A DNA stretch of 64,000 nt, taken from positions 3,727 to 67,726 of the forward strand of contig DMOI01000045.1 of assembly GCA_003452395.1 (NCBI GenBank), written 5' to 3'. The first letter of the stretch is position 1; every line of letters starts with the position of its first letter. The translations under genes were made by a program, and so were the position numbers. This document shows, piece by piece, positions 17,115 to 60,082 of this stretch. The DNA is from Clostridiales bacterium. GTDB taxonomy: Bacteria > Bacillota > Clostridia > Lachnospirales > UBA12420. Under the pieces are notes generated by a model, which was not told where the DNA came from, ran no database searches, and was given only the letters and a program-made list of their open reading frames with translations.

Positions 17115-17291
17115 AATATCAATCTCCTCTCTATATATTTTATTTTTTAAAATTTTTACTTATCTTTAACAACATCTTCTAACATAAATCTCCACAGCAC
17201 ACGGGTTGTCCACTTCTTCTGTAACAATATTTAGACAGTAGTTTTTAAAGTATCCCTATTATAAAACCCTCGATCCAGTTTTTGAATATCA

Positions 17292-18461
17292 TCACATCCT
17301 CGTATACCCACTAATTATCTTACTAAAATTACTACCAATCGTATTTTCTTCTACATCTTTGCCTGCGAGCAGTGCACCTTCGCATATAAAATCTTCATCT
17401 ATATAAATCCTTGCAACTCCTATCTCCACACCTTTTTGTATAGGTGCTTCGATTAGTTCAGGGTAATATATTTCTGCTCTAAGTTTTTCCTTTTCCGAAT
17501 TTTTTATCGGTAATATTATATCATCTTTCAAATATAAATCAATACTTTGTTTTTTACTTTTTTTCACTTCTACACTTTTTGCTAAAATATCATTCTTTTT
17601 ATAAATATCTTCATATTTAAAATTATCAAACCCATAATTCAAAACTTTTTTCGTGTCTGTCCATTTGGCTTGTTTACCTCTATTGCCCCATCCACTTGCG
17701 AGAACAACTGATATAAGCTGCATACCATTGTTTTCTGCACTTCCAACAAAACATTGCCCTGCAGCATTTGTGAATCCAGTTTTCACTCCATTTCCACCTG
17801 GATAATCGTTTAGTAATTTATTGTGATTTGTCAAACTAAAACTTCGATAATTACCACCATTAACAGGTGTGTATACATTTTTTGTAGTGATTATATCTCT
17901 AAATTTTTTATTACTGAGTGCATATCTAGTTATTAAAGCCATATCGTAAGCAGTCGAGTGATGGTCTTCTTTATCTAGTCCATTTGGTGTTTTAAACACT
18001 GTATCCTTTGCCCCTATTTCTTTAGCTTTCTCTGTCATCTGCATACAGAAACTTTCTACACTTCCACCTACATGTTCCGCTATAGCAACAGCCGCATCAT
18101 TTGCAGATACCAACATGAGAGCATAAAGTAAATCCTCTAGTCTTTGTTTTTCACCTTGCCTTAAATATAGTTTAACCTTTGGTGCAAGTGCTGCTTTCCT
18201 GCTAACTACTACTATATCATAAATTTCAGAATTTTCAAGTGCTAATATACAAGTCATAATTTTGGTTGTACTTGCCATTGGTCTAGGCTTATATATATTC
18301 TTGCCCCATAACACCCTACCTGTTTTATAATCCATAAGAATAGAACTATCAGCCGCAACGATAGGCTCCTTTGTTTGCACAGCTAAAGCAATATTCAAAA
18401 ACAACATATTTAGTATCATCATTATTATTATAATTTTCTTTTTCAATTCTCCATCCTCCAA
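17292..18461 (-). CDS. D-alanyl-D-alanine carboxypeptidase (peptidase S11, DacB/DacF-like)
   Basis: SxxK (ASTTK), SxN (SAND) and KTG (KTGFT) motifs, with a signal anchor. Confidence 0.85.
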   Translation of the reverse strand: MEDGELKKKIIIIMMILNMLFLNIALAVQTKEPIVAADSSILMDYKTGRVLWGKNIYKPRPMASTTKIMTCILALENSEIYDIVVVSRKAALAPKVKLYLRQGEKQRLEDLLYALMLVSANDAAVAIAEHVGGSVESFCMQMTEKAKEIGAKDTVFKTPNGLDKEDHHSTAYDMALITRYALSNKKFRDIITTKNVYTPVNGGNYRSFSLTNHNKLLNDYPGGNGVKTGFTNAAGQCFVGSAENNGMQLISVVLASGWGNRGKQAKWTDTKKVLNYGFDNFKYEDIYKKNDILAKSVEVKKSKKQSIDLYLKDDIILPIKNSEKEKLRAEIYYPELIEAPIQKGVEIGVARIYIDEDFICEGALLAGKDVEENTIGSNFSKIISGYTRM

Positions 18462-31613: not shown

Positions 31614-31717
31614 TTTTTTATTTTATCCTATACAAAAATATATATTACCTCAAGTAAACTTACAAATTTGTCAGATAGTCTCCTCATCAGGCAACCGACG
31701 AGGTATTCTTTATCTAT

Positions 31718-31774
31718 CGTAGTGGTCGAGCTTGTCTCTGCTTCCTTTACGTCGAGACAAGCTCGACCACTACG
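31718..31774. other. perfect 21-bp GC-balanced hairpin of unknown function
   Basis: CGTAGTGGTCGAGCTTGTCTC, a 15-nt loop, then GAGACAAGCTCGACCACTACG. Confidence 0.8.
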
Positions 31775-31880
31775 TTACATAGCACGCCGCAAGCGGACAG
31801 GGAATTAAACCCTGAAAGATTAAAATATATTAAAAAAGCAGCTCCCTCACACTAGTTAGTACTAAAAATAAAGCTCCTCC

Positions 31881-31914
31881 AAAATAAAATTGCCCATCTA
31901 GGGCAATTTTATTT
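31881..31914 (-). terminator. terminator of the pilin-like gene 32038-33378
   Basis: Perfect 14-bp stem AAATAAAATTGCCC / GGGCAATTTTATTT with a 5-6 nt loop. Confidence 0.7.
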
Positions 31915-31940
31915 GAAGTCCGTTGCACTCTTCGAGTATA

Positions 31941-31973
31941 GTTTAACTAAGCTTTGAAAATACCAAAGCTAAG
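31941..31973 (-). repeat. conserved 3'-flank hairpin motif, copy 1
   Basis: On the minus strand CTTAGCTTTGGTATTTTCAAAGCTTAGTTAAAC. About 27 of 33 nt are shared with copy 2. Confidence 0.7.
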
Positions 31974-32037
31974 TTTCCACTTATCGCGTACGACACTAAT
32001 TCCGCGGCTCTTCTCTTCCGATATTTTTCCATCCTTT

Positions 32038-33378
32038 TTATTCCCACGTTATCGTATATGCATCCCCCGCACTAGCTCCGCTCGCTCCATCTAGTGTCAT
32101 ACCCGACGGACTTAAAAACAAAGCGGGCCGAACTCCGTTGTTACCGATATAGACGTAGTTGCAGTTCACCTCGCCACTCGCGAACACGTAGCGGACGTAG
32201 TACGAATTAAGCGCATAAGAGTCCCTTAGCCAGTAATACCCATACGCCCCTGTATTTAATCCTACATCTGTATAGCCTCCTGCTGTACTTTGCGTTACTG
32301 CTTCACTCGTTGGATATGCTTTTGTCCATGCTACTCCATCCCCTAGTGCCCCATTACTATATACATAGTCATTTAATTCCTTTATTCCTAGTAAAAATAC
32401 ACTTTCTGTCGTGTCTTTATAGTTTGCACTTACATAGTTTTCTACTGCTGCACTTGCATTTGTTGCTGTATATGTATGACTTGCTGTTCCTCCTGTTTTT
32501 GCGGCTGTTGCTGCATCTGTATTTGCTAGTATTGTTTTATGGGTTACTGGCATTATTTTACTTCTTTCTACTCCGTTAAAGTTTCCATCTGCCAAAAATC
32601 CTTTTTCTGCATCATATGGGTTGAAGCTACTATATACTCTTGCTGCGGTTGGCGAAAAGTATCCTAGCCAATCTACTAATCCAGCTCCTGCACTACTGTT
32701 TAGCCATGCTTTTAGGTTGCTTTTATCCCAGTAGTTACTTCCGTATGTTCCTCTATCTGCATCTCCCCCTGCTCCTGTTATCAGGTTTTCTCCTGTTGCG
32801 TCAAATGGTTTTATGCTTATTATTTTATCACTAAATAGCATGAGGTCTCCCTCGTGTAGTCCACTTCCTGGATTCGCTGCTAGGTATGCTGCGTCTACTT
32901 TGTTTATTACTCTCCATACGATTGGTTGACTTAGATATGTCCCGAATTTTAGGTAGTTTCCTACTGGCACATCTGCTACTACTGGTGGCTCTGGTTCTCC
33001 TCCACTTGCTACTCCTGTTACTTCTACTAGTGGCTGATTTACTGTTGCTATTCCTGTTACTGACGAGACAACTACTTTATACTCTTTTTCTGGATCTGTT
33101 GGATATATCGGATTTACGGGTAGCTCTTTTATATATCCTCCCGCTATCATTTCTGGTATACAGTCTGTATCATCTACTATACTATCTTGTGCTAATAGGT
33201 AGCTCTGTGCCTGTTGTTGTAGCATTCTCACATTTGCATTGTGTGCTATCTGCTTTGCTGTTTCGCTCTTATTCATGAATATTGGTATTGCTATTGTTGC
33301 TAGTGCTGCTAGTATTACCAGTACTGCTAATAATTCTAATAAAGTGAACCCTTTTTTGTTTTTTCTTTCAACTTTCAA
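32038..33378 (-). CDS. type IV prepilin-like N-terminus fused to a DUF1566/DUF6273-like (lectin-fold-like) domain
   Basis: KKG|FTLLELLAVLVILAALATIAIPIF class III signal motif. C-terminal YYWLRDS...GVRPALF pattern. GC clearly above its neighbours. TTG start lies inside a heptamer repeat. Confidence 0.75.
   Translation of the reverse strand: MKVERKNKKGFTLLELLAVLVILAALATIAIPIFMNKSETAKQIAHNANVRMLQQQAQSYLLAQDSIVDDTDCIPEMIAGGYIKELPVNPIYPTDPEKEYKVVVSSVTGIATVNQPLVEVTGVASGGEPEPPVVADVPVGNYLKFGTYLSQPIVWRVINKVDAAYLAANPGSGLHEGDLMLFSDKIISIKPFDATGENLITGAGGDADRGTYGSNYWDKSNLKAWLNSSAGAGLVDWLGYFSPTAARVYSSFNPYDAEKGFLADGNFNGVERSKIMPVTHKTILANTDAATAAKTGGTASHTYTATNASAAVENYVSANYKDTTESVFLLGIKELNDYVYSNGALGDGVAWTKAYPTSEAVTQSTAGGYTDVGLNTGAYGYYWLRDSYALNSYYVRYVFASGEVNCNYVYIGNNGVRPALFLSPSGMTLDGASGASAGDAYTITWE
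32119..32232 (-). other. candidate DGR-type variable-region-like segment (adenine-poor NNY codons)
   Basis: 38 codons from TGG CTA AGG to GCT TTG. By hand count 23 of 114 nt are A and only 2 codons end in A. AAC/TAC/TAT/TGC/ATC codons are interleaved with adenine-free GTC CGC, GTG TTC GCG and GTT CGG CCC GCT TTG. Confidence 0.4.
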
Positions 33379-33382
33379 CTTT
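33366..33382. repeat. family B short arm covering the start codon of the pilin-like gene
   Basis: TTTCAAC TTTCAAC TTT. Confidence 0.6.
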
Positions 33383-33597
33383 AATCACCATTCCTCTTAT
33401 TAAATTTTGCTATGATGTTTTTTCTTAGGTTATATGTATTTCATTGCTTTGCATGATTTATCCAGCTTTTTATCTTGTCTAATATTATCATTTTTCCAAG
33501 TACCAGTCAAGAATTTTTTGTAGAGTTTTTTGTTTTGAAAATAAGTCCCTCTTAATGACAAAATAAAGACAGATTACTAATCTGCCATTATTTCTTC

Positions 33598-58033: not shown

Positions 58034-59611
58034 TTAGTCAAGCCCACACAGAACGGGACGGAAAGAAACATTACTATCAGCAGTGCCATTGATGTAGTGA
58101 CCCGCGAACGCCCCCGCACTAGTACCATTAGAGTAGTTACCACCGCGAAGGAAAAACGGATTCGCGCTATATGGAAAATATTGGTAATCTCCGTATCCTT
58201 TAAAGGTATTTGTGTTTGTGCTATTATCGCCACATTTCATTATTTCATGTAATGCTAGTCCTGTCGTATTTCCTTCTGTTTGAGTATAGTTTTCTTGATA
58301 TGTTGGTGTTCCATCTTCTGTTACTGCTAATACATCTGCTACACCGCTATTACTTCCATAGGCTGTTACTAGGCTTCCACCATTTGTAGTTAGGATTCCA
58401 TTTCCGTTTGCCACGTAGCTTGCTATGTACTCCCAAGCACCACCACTCATGTCATAGATTCCGTACACGTTTCCGGTTGTGCTTGCTTTTTGGCATTGTG
58501 CATTTTTATAGTCACTGATTGTTCCTACATCTGTTCCTGCACTTGCAGAGCTTCCTGCGCTTCCTGTGACGTATCCACTGTCATTGTTTATCCATATCTC
58601 TACGCCATCTCTTACTGCTTCTGAAAGATATGTTACCGCTCCCCAGTCTCTATTTCTCATCATCAGGGTGTCTACTTCACTGCTGTTAAGTCCATAGCTG
58701 CCTGTTTTCATTGCAATACATTTGTTATATATATTATTTACTGTTATACTTCTCCAGCTTGCTACGCTTGGTACTACTTTTATGTTTGTACTTGCATTTT
58801 GACTTGCTTCAAATTTGGCTACCCAGATGCCCGTGAGCTGTGTTGCTCCATATGTAAAGGCTGGGTGCACAGTAAATCCTGCTGTTGATGTGGTACTCGT
58901 TCCTTCTAGATATTCTATTTCTATTTTATCGTCTGCTGCTGAATCTGTATTGTCTCCTGTTATCTTGTATGCATATCGTGGTATCCATACAAACATACTA
59001 TTATCTACATCTCCTAGTTGTACATTTGCCCATTTTTCACTTGTCGCATAACTTCCATTTTCTACGTCTCCTGCGTAGTTATACCATGCTACATCATCTG
59101 CTGTTGTTGTGACTACATTGTTGCTTCCATCCCATTTGATTGGTGTCATTCCTGTTAGTAGCTTCGGCTTGTTTACTCCCATCGCTACATTATATTCTGG
59201 GTCTGATGCTGGTGGCGTACCACCGCCTTGAGCGGTGTTGGTTACCTCTACTAGCCCTGGGCTTACTGTTACCTTACCGTCTGCTGCTACTGCTACGGTA
59301 AATGCTCCCGAACCATCCCCGCTTGCTATCGGATTTGTTGGTCTTTCCCTTAGATACCCTGTTGTTACCATAGTGTCTATGATATCTGCCTGTACTCCTG
59401 TATCTCCCTGCTCCCACAGGTATGCCTGTGCTTGCTTTTGCAAGAGTGCTACTGTTTCGTTATGGGCTATTTCTCTTGCTCTACCCCCGTTATTCGTAAA
59501 TATAGGTATCGCAATCGTCGCTAGTGCTGCAAGTATTACAAGCACTGCTAAAAGTTCAAGTAATGTAAACCCTTTTTTTGTATTTCTTTTCGTATCGTGC
59601 ATGTCTTTCAT
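58034..59611 (-). CDS. type IV prepilin-like N-terminus fused to an FGE-sulfatase/C-type-lectin-fold-like domain
   Basis: KKG|FTLLELLAVLVILAALATIAIPIF. C-terminal ...GIYDMSGGAWEY...RGGNYSNG...VSFRPV resembles the FGE-sulfatase fold. GGAGGT RBS. GC above its neighbours. Confidence 0.75.
   Translation of the reverse strand: MKDMHDTKRNTKKGFTLLELLAVLVILAALATIAIPIFTNNGGRAREIAHNETVALLQKQAQAYLWEQGDTGVQADIIDTMVTTGYLRERPTNPIASGDGSGAFTVAVAADGKVTVSPGLVEVTNTAQGGGTPPASDPEYNVAMGVNKPKLLTGMTPIKWDGSNNVVTTTADDVAWYNYAGDVENGSYATSEKWANVQLGDVDNSMFVWIPRYAYKITGDNTDSAADDKIEIEYLEGTSTTSTAGFTVHPAFTYGATQLTGIWVAKFEASQNASTNIKVVPSVASWRSITVNNIYNKCIAMKTGSYGLNSSEVDTLMMRNRDWGAVTYLSEAVRDGVEIWINNDSGYVTGSAGSSASAGTDVGTISDYKNAQCQKASTTGNVYGIYDMSGGAWEYIASYVANGNGILTTNGGSLVTAYGSNSGVADVLAVTEDGTPTYQENYTQTEGNTTGLALHEIMKCGDNSTNTNTFKGYGDYQYFPYSANPFFLRGGNYSNGTSAGAFAGHYINGTADSNVSFRPVLCGLD
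58037..58170 (-). other. candidate DGR-type variable-region-like segment (adenine-poor NNY codons)
   Basis: The last 38 codons have no A at third positions. By hand count 18 of 114 nt are A. Adenine-free scaffold codons (GCG GGG GCG TTC GCG; TTC CGT CCC GTT CTG TGT GGG CTT) are interleaved with AAC/TAC/AAT/CAC/ATC/AGT codons. Confidence 0.45.
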
Positions 59612-59727: not shown

Positions 59728-59774
59728 CCTATACCTATACCTATACCTATACCTATACCTATACCTATACCTAT
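59728..59774. repeat. hexanucleotide microsatellite (CCTATA)7 plus a partial unit
   Basis: Read directly and confirmed by the IPIPIP / GIGIGI translations in the ORF track. Lies 117-163 nt upstream of the 59611 start codon. Confidence 0.95.
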
Positions 59775-59801: not shown

Positions 59802-59850
59802 TAGATTTCGAAAAGAAAATTTTCGCAACAAGAAAAGCGCTCCGCGCGTG

Positions 59851-60024
59851 TGTCATTGCGACATCCTAATACTTAGTTTGTGTATTTTGCAAACTTAGTT
59901 ATAGGGGTACTAGTATAGTGAGAGGTTCTTTCGACGAAGCAATCCCTTGCTCCTTACGAAATACTAAAGTGAACTATTAATTTGTTCCATAAAACACGGG
60001 ATTGCTTCGTTCCTCGCAATGACA
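59851..60024. repeat. family A palindromic element with the same 58-bp nested insert in its left arm
   Basis: Left arm plus insert at 59851-59947, right arm GGGATTGCTTCGTTCCTCGCAATGACA at 59998-60024. Confidence 0.85.
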
Positions 60025-60049
60025 AAATCGGAGGAGTTTCCTAGTAAAC

Positions 60050-60082
60050 AAAAAAACTCTCTAGCAAATATAGAGAGTTTTT
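60050..60082 (-). terminator. rho-independent terminator after spoVG (bidirectional shape)
   Basis: AACTCTCTA-N7-TAGAGAGTT flanked by an A-run and a T-run. Confidence 0.65.

Follow-up and report, generated by a model that had tools for sequence, protein, structure and literature searches.

What can a prepilin-type gene do where the surrounding DNA encodes no pilus machinery? This question is raised by two genes in a 64,000-nt stretch of DNA from an uncultured, spore-forming Clostridiales bacterium of groundwater origin (assembly GCA_003452395.1, contig DMOI01000045.1, positions 3727-67726), hereafter referred to as the window: gene A, open reading frame (ORF) 32038-33378, and gene B, ORF 58034-59611, both on the minus strand. 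An initial annotation, made from the letters of the window alone, described them as two orphan pilin-stalk paralogues with swapped heads. We analyzed both genes in the context of their whole genome (G000; 2.04 Mb in 66 contigs, denoted by C and a number, with the window on C40; 32% G+C, 97% complete) and of its relatives; homologues bear the source names Clostridiales bacterium GWD2_32_19 and DEP72. We consider it probable that genes A and B are modular type IV pilins, two of about 21 in this genome with an invariant N-terminal helix segment (alpha1N), that their lectin-fold heads were written by diversity-generating retroelements (DGRs), and that they are displayed on one type IV pilus.

Common prepilin N-terminus and different heads of the window genes

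Both ORFs exist as annotated. In BLASTP, the alignment of their products is confined to the N-terminal ~164 residues (48% identity, E 2e-35); the remainder is unrelated at the sequence level. The N-termini exceeded the cut-offs of two prepilin models, PF07963 (N_methyl; 32.8 bits for gene A and 29.3 bits for gene B, cut-off 21.2) and TIGR02532 (30.5 and 30.1, cut-off 16.3), so that the description of two prepilin-type proteins with a common stalk and differing heads holds. The leader in both genes, ..KNKKG|FTLLELLAVLVILAALATIAIPIF, has the features of a class III signal peptide: it is basic, with Gly at position -1, Glu at position +5, and a hydrophobic stretch of ~20 residues. The 25 residues starting from Gly-1, GFTLLELLAVLVILAALATIAIPIF, are identical in the two proteins, and the 75 nt coding for them differ at 15 positions, all synonymous; the common N-terminus is thus old and under purifying selection, and the genes are no recent duplicates, as had been proposed.

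The head of gene A belongs to the DUF6273 family (PF19789; 52.4 bits vs the gathering threshold of 23.5, E 7e-14). The AF2 model of the protein (pLDDT 85) contains a helix (residues 13-63), a small sheet, a disordered linker (122-133), and the head (142-446), mostly with pLDDT >90. In the stalk, modelled with pLDDT ~75-85, the only strands are two short ones (102-105 and 110-113), and there is a short helix at 74-79. A disordered segment between the stalk and a confident, independent head is the architecture of a modular pilin. Profiles of both protein families match solved pilins within alpha1 only (E 1e-8 for the gene B family profile).

Comparison of the gene A model with PDB by Foldseek gave a sole significant match, 9qa6 (E 3e-22, 321 columns, root-mean-square deviation 2.3 A, 26% identity), which the DUF6273-family profile also matches (4.5e-63). 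This structure is the N-terminal domain of the Thomasclavelia ramosa IgA peptidase, described by its authors as an enlarged C-type-lectin-like domain related to the C-terminal domain of Legionella Lcl (PMC12237041). In a viral structure library, the fold of the gene A head is common among DUF6273 and tail-fibre-like phage proteins. For the gene B head, the family profile matched TaqVP, the DGR variable protein of Thermus aquaticus (PDB 5vf4, bioRxiv 10.1101/432187; E 7e-6), and pFGE (1y4j, E 0.35). The gene B head family has 5060 matches, many of them ~500 aa long with pilin-like N-termini and named PilA or PulG by their source. Judging from the model for gene A and from the profiles for gene B, the two heads appear to be two versions of the C-type-lectin fold used by DGRs.

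A family of about 21 pilins and the pilus machinery

A motif scan together with tblastn revealed the N-terminus and stalk in 17 large genes of the genome; four further DUF6273 heads have 5' ends cut by contig breaks, bringing the total to ~21 modular pilins. The same stalk carries (i) DUF6273 heads in 15 copies, some with an extra Big_12 domain, (ii) FGE-like heads in three copies (C40b, C14, and C58), (iii) propeller-like repeat heads in two copies (C1 and C60), and (iv) a GLUG-like head in one copy (C26). One paralogue, C62, is frameshifted. The expansion of the family is genus-specific: tblastn gave 33 matches in this genome and 11 and 18 in its two congeners, compared with 0-2 in genomes from other families of the order.

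The 25-residue segment is identical in at least 13 genes, including two pilins (C47a and C47b) of an operon on C47. Thirteen copies of the 75-nt coding segment differ on average by 12.4 nt (16%), and all 29 variable columns are synonymous. Such synonymous-only divergence indicates that purifying selection strongly maintains one exact alpha1N, and it excludes gene conversion as well as recent duplication. If these proteins pack together with the operon pilins in a single filament core, an invariant alpha1N would be required of them.

The C47 operon encodes PilB, PilC, and five short pilins, of which the two longest (182 and 193 aa) carry the identical helix and are the candidates for the major pilin. 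The prepilin peptidase PilD and the retraction ATPase PilT are encoded side by side on C23; the remaining T2SSE-family ATPases of the genome are TadA/CpaF-like. No T2SSE or Peptidase_A24 match was found on the contig of the window. The pilus machinery is, as annotated, not near the two genes, but a prepilin peptidase and an assembly system, whose absence was to speak against the annotation, are both present in the genome. With the N-terminal module in ~21 genes and this machinery available, the genes are neither orphans nor merely two.

Two retroelements and the variable regions of the heads

DGR-1, located on C38, comprises on one strand a MutS_I-Avd fusion gene, the template repeat TR1, a reverse transcriptase gene, and a DUF6273 pilin gene as the cis target; between TR1 and the reverse transcriptase gene, the RT-14 RNA model matches weakly (34 bits). 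The variable region of gene A is homologous to TR1 and differs from it at 12 of 29 template adenines and 8 of 73 other positions (Fisher p 0.001). The corresponding counts are 17/29 and 2/73 for the cis target region at C38:341-442 (p 7e-10), 13/29 and 2/73 for the 102-nt region that starts at C15:1114 in the paralogue on C15 (p 5.3e-07), and 20/29 and 6/73 for the paralogue on C11 (p 1.4e-09). In the DUF6273-type genes, ~26 codons follow the variable region. TR1 contains 11 AAY codons, and arithmetic on the established DGR mechanism gives at least 15^11 head variants.

We considered a TR1 copy in sister genomes as the explanation for the non-adenine mismatches of gene A; all four matches proved to be variable regions inside genes. 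Two candidate same-locus variants among protein-cluster members were also rejected: P0170 comes from another locus of another assembly, and P0169 (locus L020) resembles C66 for 100 nt and is then identical to gene A, being probably an assembly chimera.

The variable region of gene B is homologous to the template repeat of a second retroelement, DGR-2, which is complete on contig C33 of a sister genome, G002 (L021:1161-2520), and includes a target, a reverse transcriptase gene (36% identical, with one in-frame TAG), a 128-nt template repeat, and an RT-14 RNA. Gene B differs from this template at 12 of 32 adenines and 4 of 96 other positions (p 9e-6), and the cis target in G002 at 22/32 and 0/96. 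In the genome under study, a truncated template copy, TR2, lies downstream of the FGE-head paralogue on C58; it corresponds to 69 nt at the 3' end of the 128-nt variable region and no more (gene B vs TR2, adenines 8/18, others 8/51). It is followed directly by a full-length RT-14 RNA (RF02921; 60 bits vs the gathering threshold of 48); RNA motifs of the RT family have been proposed as DGR spacer RNAs (PMC5737381). Given the complete arrangement in G002, the C58 copy is a remnant left by deletion, in which the reverse transcriptase gene is missing and the template has lost its 5' half. Of DGR-1, in turn, G002 retains reverse transcriptase fragments only, and TR1 is absent there. The two DGRs have thus decayed reciprocally in the sister genomes, DGR-1 being whole in G000 and DGR-2 being kept, with one TAG in its reverse transcriptase gene, in G002.

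Besides that of DGR-1, the genome encodes only two reverse transcriptases, one belonging to a group II intron (C5) and one of the retron/UG-like type (C30). The latter was rejected as the missing DGR-2 enzyme by its YGIPQGSPIS motif and its context. It is neither of the DGR nor of the group II type, and it is encoded at the contig start, opposite a gene for a 595-aa P-loop-like protein, with which it could form a defence system.

Relatives of both heads were also found outside the pilins: a Sec-signal DUF6273 protein on C57, and a 1400-aa surface protein on C23 that ends in an FGE-like head (..NVSFRPVIVGLE). Compared with TR2, the latter head showed no adenine-type variation.

Both window heads therefore appear, from the pattern of mismatches, to bear genuine DGR-written variable regions. 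The annotation correctly recognized that the heads are swapped, and it missed that both are C-type-lectin-fold DGR variable domains with matching retroelement parts in the genome. The cis targets on C38 and in G002 are much cleaner than the window genes. Non-adenine differences in both window genes and the loss of DGR-2 suggest that neither gene is being rewritten now; they look like written targets that are currently frozen or only rarely rewritten.

Proposed pathway and alternative explanations

These components are consistent with the following pathway: (i) the prepilins would be cleaved by PilD after Gly-1, (ii) the C47 system would assemble the pilin module into a pilus core shared with the operon pilins, (iii) the flexible linker would join the stalk to the large head, which would bind a ligand as a putative adhesin, (iv) the binding surface of gene A would have been written by mutagenic retrohoming from TR1 of the intact C38 DGR, and that of gene B from the second DGR, of which this genome retains the remnant on C58, and (v) the window genes would now be fixed variants in an adhesin repertoire. 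The most likely function of the proteins would be that of tip adhesins on one type IV pilus.

Several points weigh against this pathway. The tip location is taken by analogy only, from the Streptococcus sanguinis pilins PilB and PilC, and for the PilM/N/O-like genes that follow the C47 pilins, profile searches gave no family match. The AF2 model of gene B is poor (pLDDT 44), and its lectin fold is thus read from profile matches. FGE-sulfatase (PF03781) matches the gene B head only below the threshold (15.4 vs 23.3 bits, over 31 residues). Hence, of the two head labels given originally, DUF6273 stands for gene A, whereas FGE-sulfatase does not stand for gene B as Pfam membership, and we refer to this head as FGE-like or TaqVP-like. 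Gene A has eight non-adenine mismatches to TR1, and its G+C-rich 3' element differs from that of TR1 at 3 of 14 nt; no stable hairpin was found 3' of either window variable region (z-scores ~0). The element mismatch and the missing hairpin argue against current targeting, not against a DGR origin. Finally, no reverse transcriptase adjoins TR2, and the cognate enzyme of gene B is absent from the 97% complete assembly.

An unlikely, though the most serious, alternative is that the prepilin N-terminus serves only for export and anchoring, so that the proteins stay in the membrane or in short pseudopili and the heads act at the cell surface, as is the case for type II secretion pseudopilins and for sugar-binding proteins with class III signal peptides in the archaeal bindosome. 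Among full-family NCBIfam models, both proteins match ComGC and GspG best, over their first ~80 residues and in all cases below the cut-offs of these models; 21 bulky subunits are many for the tips of one pilus type, and the missing PilM/N/O match points in the same direction. However, an alpha1N that matches the two longest operon pilins residue for residue, and is kept so by strong purifying selection, exceeds the need of a membrane anchor, and the PilT retraction ATPase is present. Moreover, in a monoderm bacterium a stalk of ~120 residues could hardly pass the head through the wall without a filament. We therefore prefer display on the pilus.

It is still less probable that the window genes remain active remote targets, with the C38 reverse transcriptase and Avd acting in trans on TR1 and on the remnant TR2-spacer RNA, and with non-adenine differences that are tolerated or recent. 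Remote targets and action in trans are established for DGRs (PMC5758913), RT-14 RNA matches follow both templates, and the 110 nt 3' of the gene A variable region are ~98% identical to the cis target on C38. On the other hand, faithful copying would have erased the eight non-adenine mismatches of gene A and the eight between gene B and TR2, the 5' part of the gene B region has no counterpart in TR2, and the G+C-rich element of gene A is altered. Fixed variants written in the past account better for the window genes.

Insertion sites and the duplicated DNA unit

The initial annotation had described both genes as G+C-rich single-gene insertions into conserved neighbourhoods, and both statements were confirmed. 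The G+C content is 0.41-0.43 in the genes vs 0.29-0.31 in their flanks. At third codon positions (GC3), it is only slightly raised (0.28-0.31 vs 0.21-0.22), which attributes much of the excess to the amino-acid composition, together with the variable regions; horizontal transfer is thus not needed as its source. In two genomes of the same genus, G001 and G002, both the spoIIGA/AI-2E site (gap of 98-153 bp) and the spoVG/glmU-like site (gap of 119-420 bp) are empty, and the flanking proteins are 57-97% identical to their window counterparts.

The unit common to the paralogues comprises the gene with ~150-210 nt of upstream and ~170 nt of downstream DNA. In C58, the downstream segment is followed by ~140 nt that are not shared and then by TR2 and the RT-14 RNA; at the gene B locus, homology to C58 stops after the downstream segment, and no template is present. 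As the shared unit includes the promoter-like upstream region, the genes seem to have spread into new sites as DNA units with their own promoter. The window genes are intron-free and their nearest paralogues (C66 and C14) intron-bearing, and a retro-copy from spliced mRNA was considered; the promoter-like region within the duplicated unit makes it unlikely. A reading of the genes as relics in decay, or as receptor-binding genes of phage origin that now serve no function in the cell, is very improbable: DUF6273 heads are common in phage tail-like proteins, the C62 paralogue is frameshifted, and DGR-2 has decayed, but both ORFs are intact with only synonymous change in the N-terminus, their promoter-like upstreams are conserved, and the flanks contain sporulation and cell-envelope genes and no phage genes.

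Two kinds of repeats were observed at the insertions. Seven exact CCTATA hexamers on the plus strand (TATAGG/TAGGTA on the gene strand), with partial repeat units on either side, lie just downstream of the promoter-like -10 element of gene B; a shorter run occupies the same place in the paralogues on C10 and C66. The run could vary the length of the gene B 5' untranslated region. Long palindromic repeats resembling miniature inverted-repeat transposable elements (MITE-like) flank both insertions, for example CTATCGTAGTGGTCGAGCTTGTCTC...GAGACAAGCTCGACCACTACG, others ending in GGAATTAAACCC.GA.AGATTAA; they recur genome-wide, including contig ends (C14 and C50). A scan of the window with Rfam gave no match.

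Group II introns in the pilin coding DNA

About 25 contig ends fall within the conserved N-terminal DNA of the pilins, and group II introns interrupt this DNA in ~13 paralogues. Twelve pilin 5' exons end 1 nt past GFTLLE, where intron A begins (GTGCGTACTG...). Two Rfam models match this intron above their gathering thresholds, RF02005 (D1-D4, 64-68 bits) and RF00029 (DV-DVI, 56 bits). As the DV-DVI match has its exact end at ...CTTGAAC|, splicing would restore GFTLLE|LLAV. The 3' strand of domain VI mimics the 5' exon (GGGTTCACTCTACTTGAAC vs GGGTTTACATTACTTGAAC). Intron B, with the 5' end GTGTGCCATGAAAATCCACACA (GTGTGCC...) and the 3' end ...GCGTTACTCGAC, is inserted 1 nt past LLAV, 12 nt downstream of the intron A site; with the end of its DV-DVI match (55 bits) at ...CTCGAC|, splicing would restore LLAV|LVIL.

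In the pilins, the junctions number 12 for the 5' and 3 for the 3' ends of intron A, and 1 for the 5' and 7 for the 3' ends of intron B. These numbers suggest that several genes carry both introns in tandem, with a 12-nt mini-exon between them. For these introns, the conserved pilin DNA seems to serve as a homing site present in many copies, and it breaks the assembly. Tentatively, and with less confidence than in display on the pilus itself, one may suppose that over 20 tip pilins with DGR-written binding surfaces are used interchangeably by a single type IV pilus machine, and that their availability would be gated by group II introns homing into the signal-peptide and alpha1N DNA.

Table 1. 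Features of the two pilin loci, the retroelements, the pilus machinery, and the introns. Positions given with no contig name are those of the window.
Feature	Location	Strand	Description
Gene A	32038..33378	-	446 aa, predicted modular type IV pilin; leader ending at Gly10, Glu+5, alpha1 helix, small pilin module, disordered linker 122-133, DUF6273 C-type-lectin-like head ~135-446
Gene A alpha1N segment	33277..33351	-	75 nt coding for GFTLLELLAVLVILAALATIAIPIF; spans prepilin peptidase site and alpha1N
Gene A variable region	32119..32220	-	34 codons, SYALNSYYVRYVFASGEVNCNYVYIGNNGVRPAL; homologous to TR1
Gene A upstream segment	33385..33533	-	common to paralogues C39, C26, C38, C11, C56; promoter-like TTGACT-17-TGnTAATAT at 33510-33482 (consensus match only)
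Gene A downstream segment	31862..32037	-	176 nt, common to paralogues C11 (98%), C66 (92%)
Insertion A (vs G001, G002)	31624..33597	.	gene A with 219 bp upstream and 414 bp downstream, the latter with palindromic repeat elements
Gene B	58034..59611	-	525 aa, predicted modular type IV pilin; N-terminus and stalk as in gene A; FGE-like (TaqVP-like) head ~140-525
Gene B variable region	58041..58168	-	128 nt; homologous to template repeat of G002:C33 and to truncated copy TR2
Gene B upstream segment	59612..59820	-	common to FGE-type paralogues (C10 91%); promoter-like TTGCAA-17-TGnTAAAAT at 59801-59773 (consensus match only)
Gene B downstream segment	57865..58033	-	169 nt, common to C14 (97%), C58 (88%)
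CCTATA run	59728-59769	+	seven exact hexamers
MITE-like repeats	31700-31830; 59850-60050		long palindromic repeats flanking both insertions
MutS_I + bAvd-like fusion	C38:2970-3650	-	226 aa, single ORF; MutS_I 8e-14, bAvd-like 4e-8
TR1	C38:2854-2955		non-coding, AAC-rich; SYAPNSYNVRNVNTDGTVNNNNAYNGNNGVRPAL
DGR-1 reverse transcriptase	C38		406 aa; RVT_1 1.4e-17; motif IGNMTSQ (IGxxxSQ)
TR2	C58:1894-1962		downstream of FGE-head paralogue
TR2 and RT-14 RNA	C58:1894-2114		
PilB	C47:16360-18006		T2SSE 1e-121 and MshEN
PilC	C47:18065-19252		T2SSF 3e-47
PilD	C23:~17166-17909		A24_N_bact 3e-36 and Peptidase_A24 4e-19
PilT	C23, adjoining PilD		TIGR01420 463 bits
Intron A, 5' sites (contig ends)	C10, C16, C26, C28, C39, C40:1-77 (outside window), C46, C54, C56, C60, C66, C19:5846-6475		
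Intron A, 3' ends	C1, C19, C58, C7		
Intron B, 5' ends	C12:1-13, C8, C55		
Intron B, 3' ends	C14, C15, C26, C60, C62, C64, C66, C21, C37; also L020:24-99		
Retron/UG/Abi-like reverse transcriptase	C30:402-1733		443 aa
Sec-signal DUF6273 protein	C57:64218-65516		non-pilin relative of gene A head
Surface protein with FGE-like head	C23:25305-29507		1400 aa, non-pilin

Comparison with known systems

The closest parallel in architecture is S. sanguinis, in which the modular pilins PilB and PilC carry a vWA and a lectin module, respectively (Raynaud et al. 2021, bioRxiv 10.1101/2021.01.27.428410; PMC9934059). These bulky modules clash in the filament body, and a tip location has been proposed (bioRxiv 10.1101/2021.01.27.428410). 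The pilins described here likewise combine a pilin module with a class III signal peptide, a short unstructured linker, and a bulky, putatively adhesive module in a monoderm host, an arrangement proposed to widen pilus binding. In contrast to the two S. sanguinis pilins, they number ~21 in the genome and are encoded by scattered single genes outside the pilus operon; they have exactly the alpha1N of the two longest operon pilins, and DGR-type lectin folds make up most of their heads.

Lectin-fold DGR variable proteins include Mtd of a Bordetella phage, Treponema TvpA, Thermus TaqVP (5VF4), and Legionella LdtA. The elements reported here share with known DGRs (i) an AAC-rich template with adenine-specific mismatches, (ii) a variable region near the C-terminus of a lectin-fold domain, (iii) an IGxxxSQ reverse transcriptase with MutS-like and Avd accessory functions, and (iv) remote targets, of which Treponema has seven. 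DGRs containing a MutS-like (MSL) gene constitute 'Architecture D' of Wu et al. 2018, in which MSL and avd are described as separate co-occurring genes (PMC5758913), whereas MutS_I and Avd are fused here in one 226-aa ORF. Further differences are the ~26 codons past the variable region in the DUF6273 type, the survival of a second template-spacer module without its reverse transcriptase, and the type IV pilin as the carrier.

In Bacteroides, the type V pilus tip adhesins BfrT, BthT, and BunT are DGR-diversified (bioRxiv 10.1101/2024.11.15.621889). In both cases, a pilus subunit, there a tip adhesin, has a DGR-diversified lectin-fold head. Type V pili, however, are built by lipoprotein export and strand exchange in diderms, and type IV pili by PilD cleavage and ATPase-driven assembly, here in a monoderm; the type V elements ride on conjugative elements, whereas the genes described here are chromosomal. 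The domain of the T. ramosa IgA peptidase (9QA6), whose enlarged C-type-lectin-like fold is also that of the gene A head, differs in being Sec-exported, dispensable for catalysis, and not DGR-varied (PMC12237041).

The literature touches on pilin-like DGR targets only briefly, and for type IV pili the link consists of survey entries: 'putative pilin structures' in DUF1566 targets of candidate phyla radiation (CPR) bacteria, as cited in PMC6642488, and a 'GspG-type pilin' among the scarce target domains (PMC11661182). These entries also fuse a prepilin N-terminus to a DGR-targeted lectin domain; they are single genes beside their own DGR in ultrasmall bacteria, listed without analysis, whereas the present genome has a large paralogous family, two DGRs that have decayed to different extents, and a pilus machine that can be identified. 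Particular to the present case are the family size on one invariant carrier, the reciprocal decay of the DGRs, the MutS_I-Avd fusion, and the introns.

Neither modular pilins nor DGRs are new in themselves, and for type V pili, in Bacteroides, DGR-varied tip adhesins have already been demonstrated. In the genome analyzed here, which presents an unusually complete case, a single pilus machine is combined with ~21 tip-type pilins that share an invariant helix, with two DGRs, of which one is intact and the other decayed and the reverse holds in a sister genome, and with self-splicing introns in the carrier DNA. It suggests how an environmental bacterium with a small genome could keep a broad and renewable set of binding specificities. 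If the supposition of an intron-gated repertoire is true, this would be a programmable adhesin repertoire in a free-living spore-former, so far undescribed for type IV pili.

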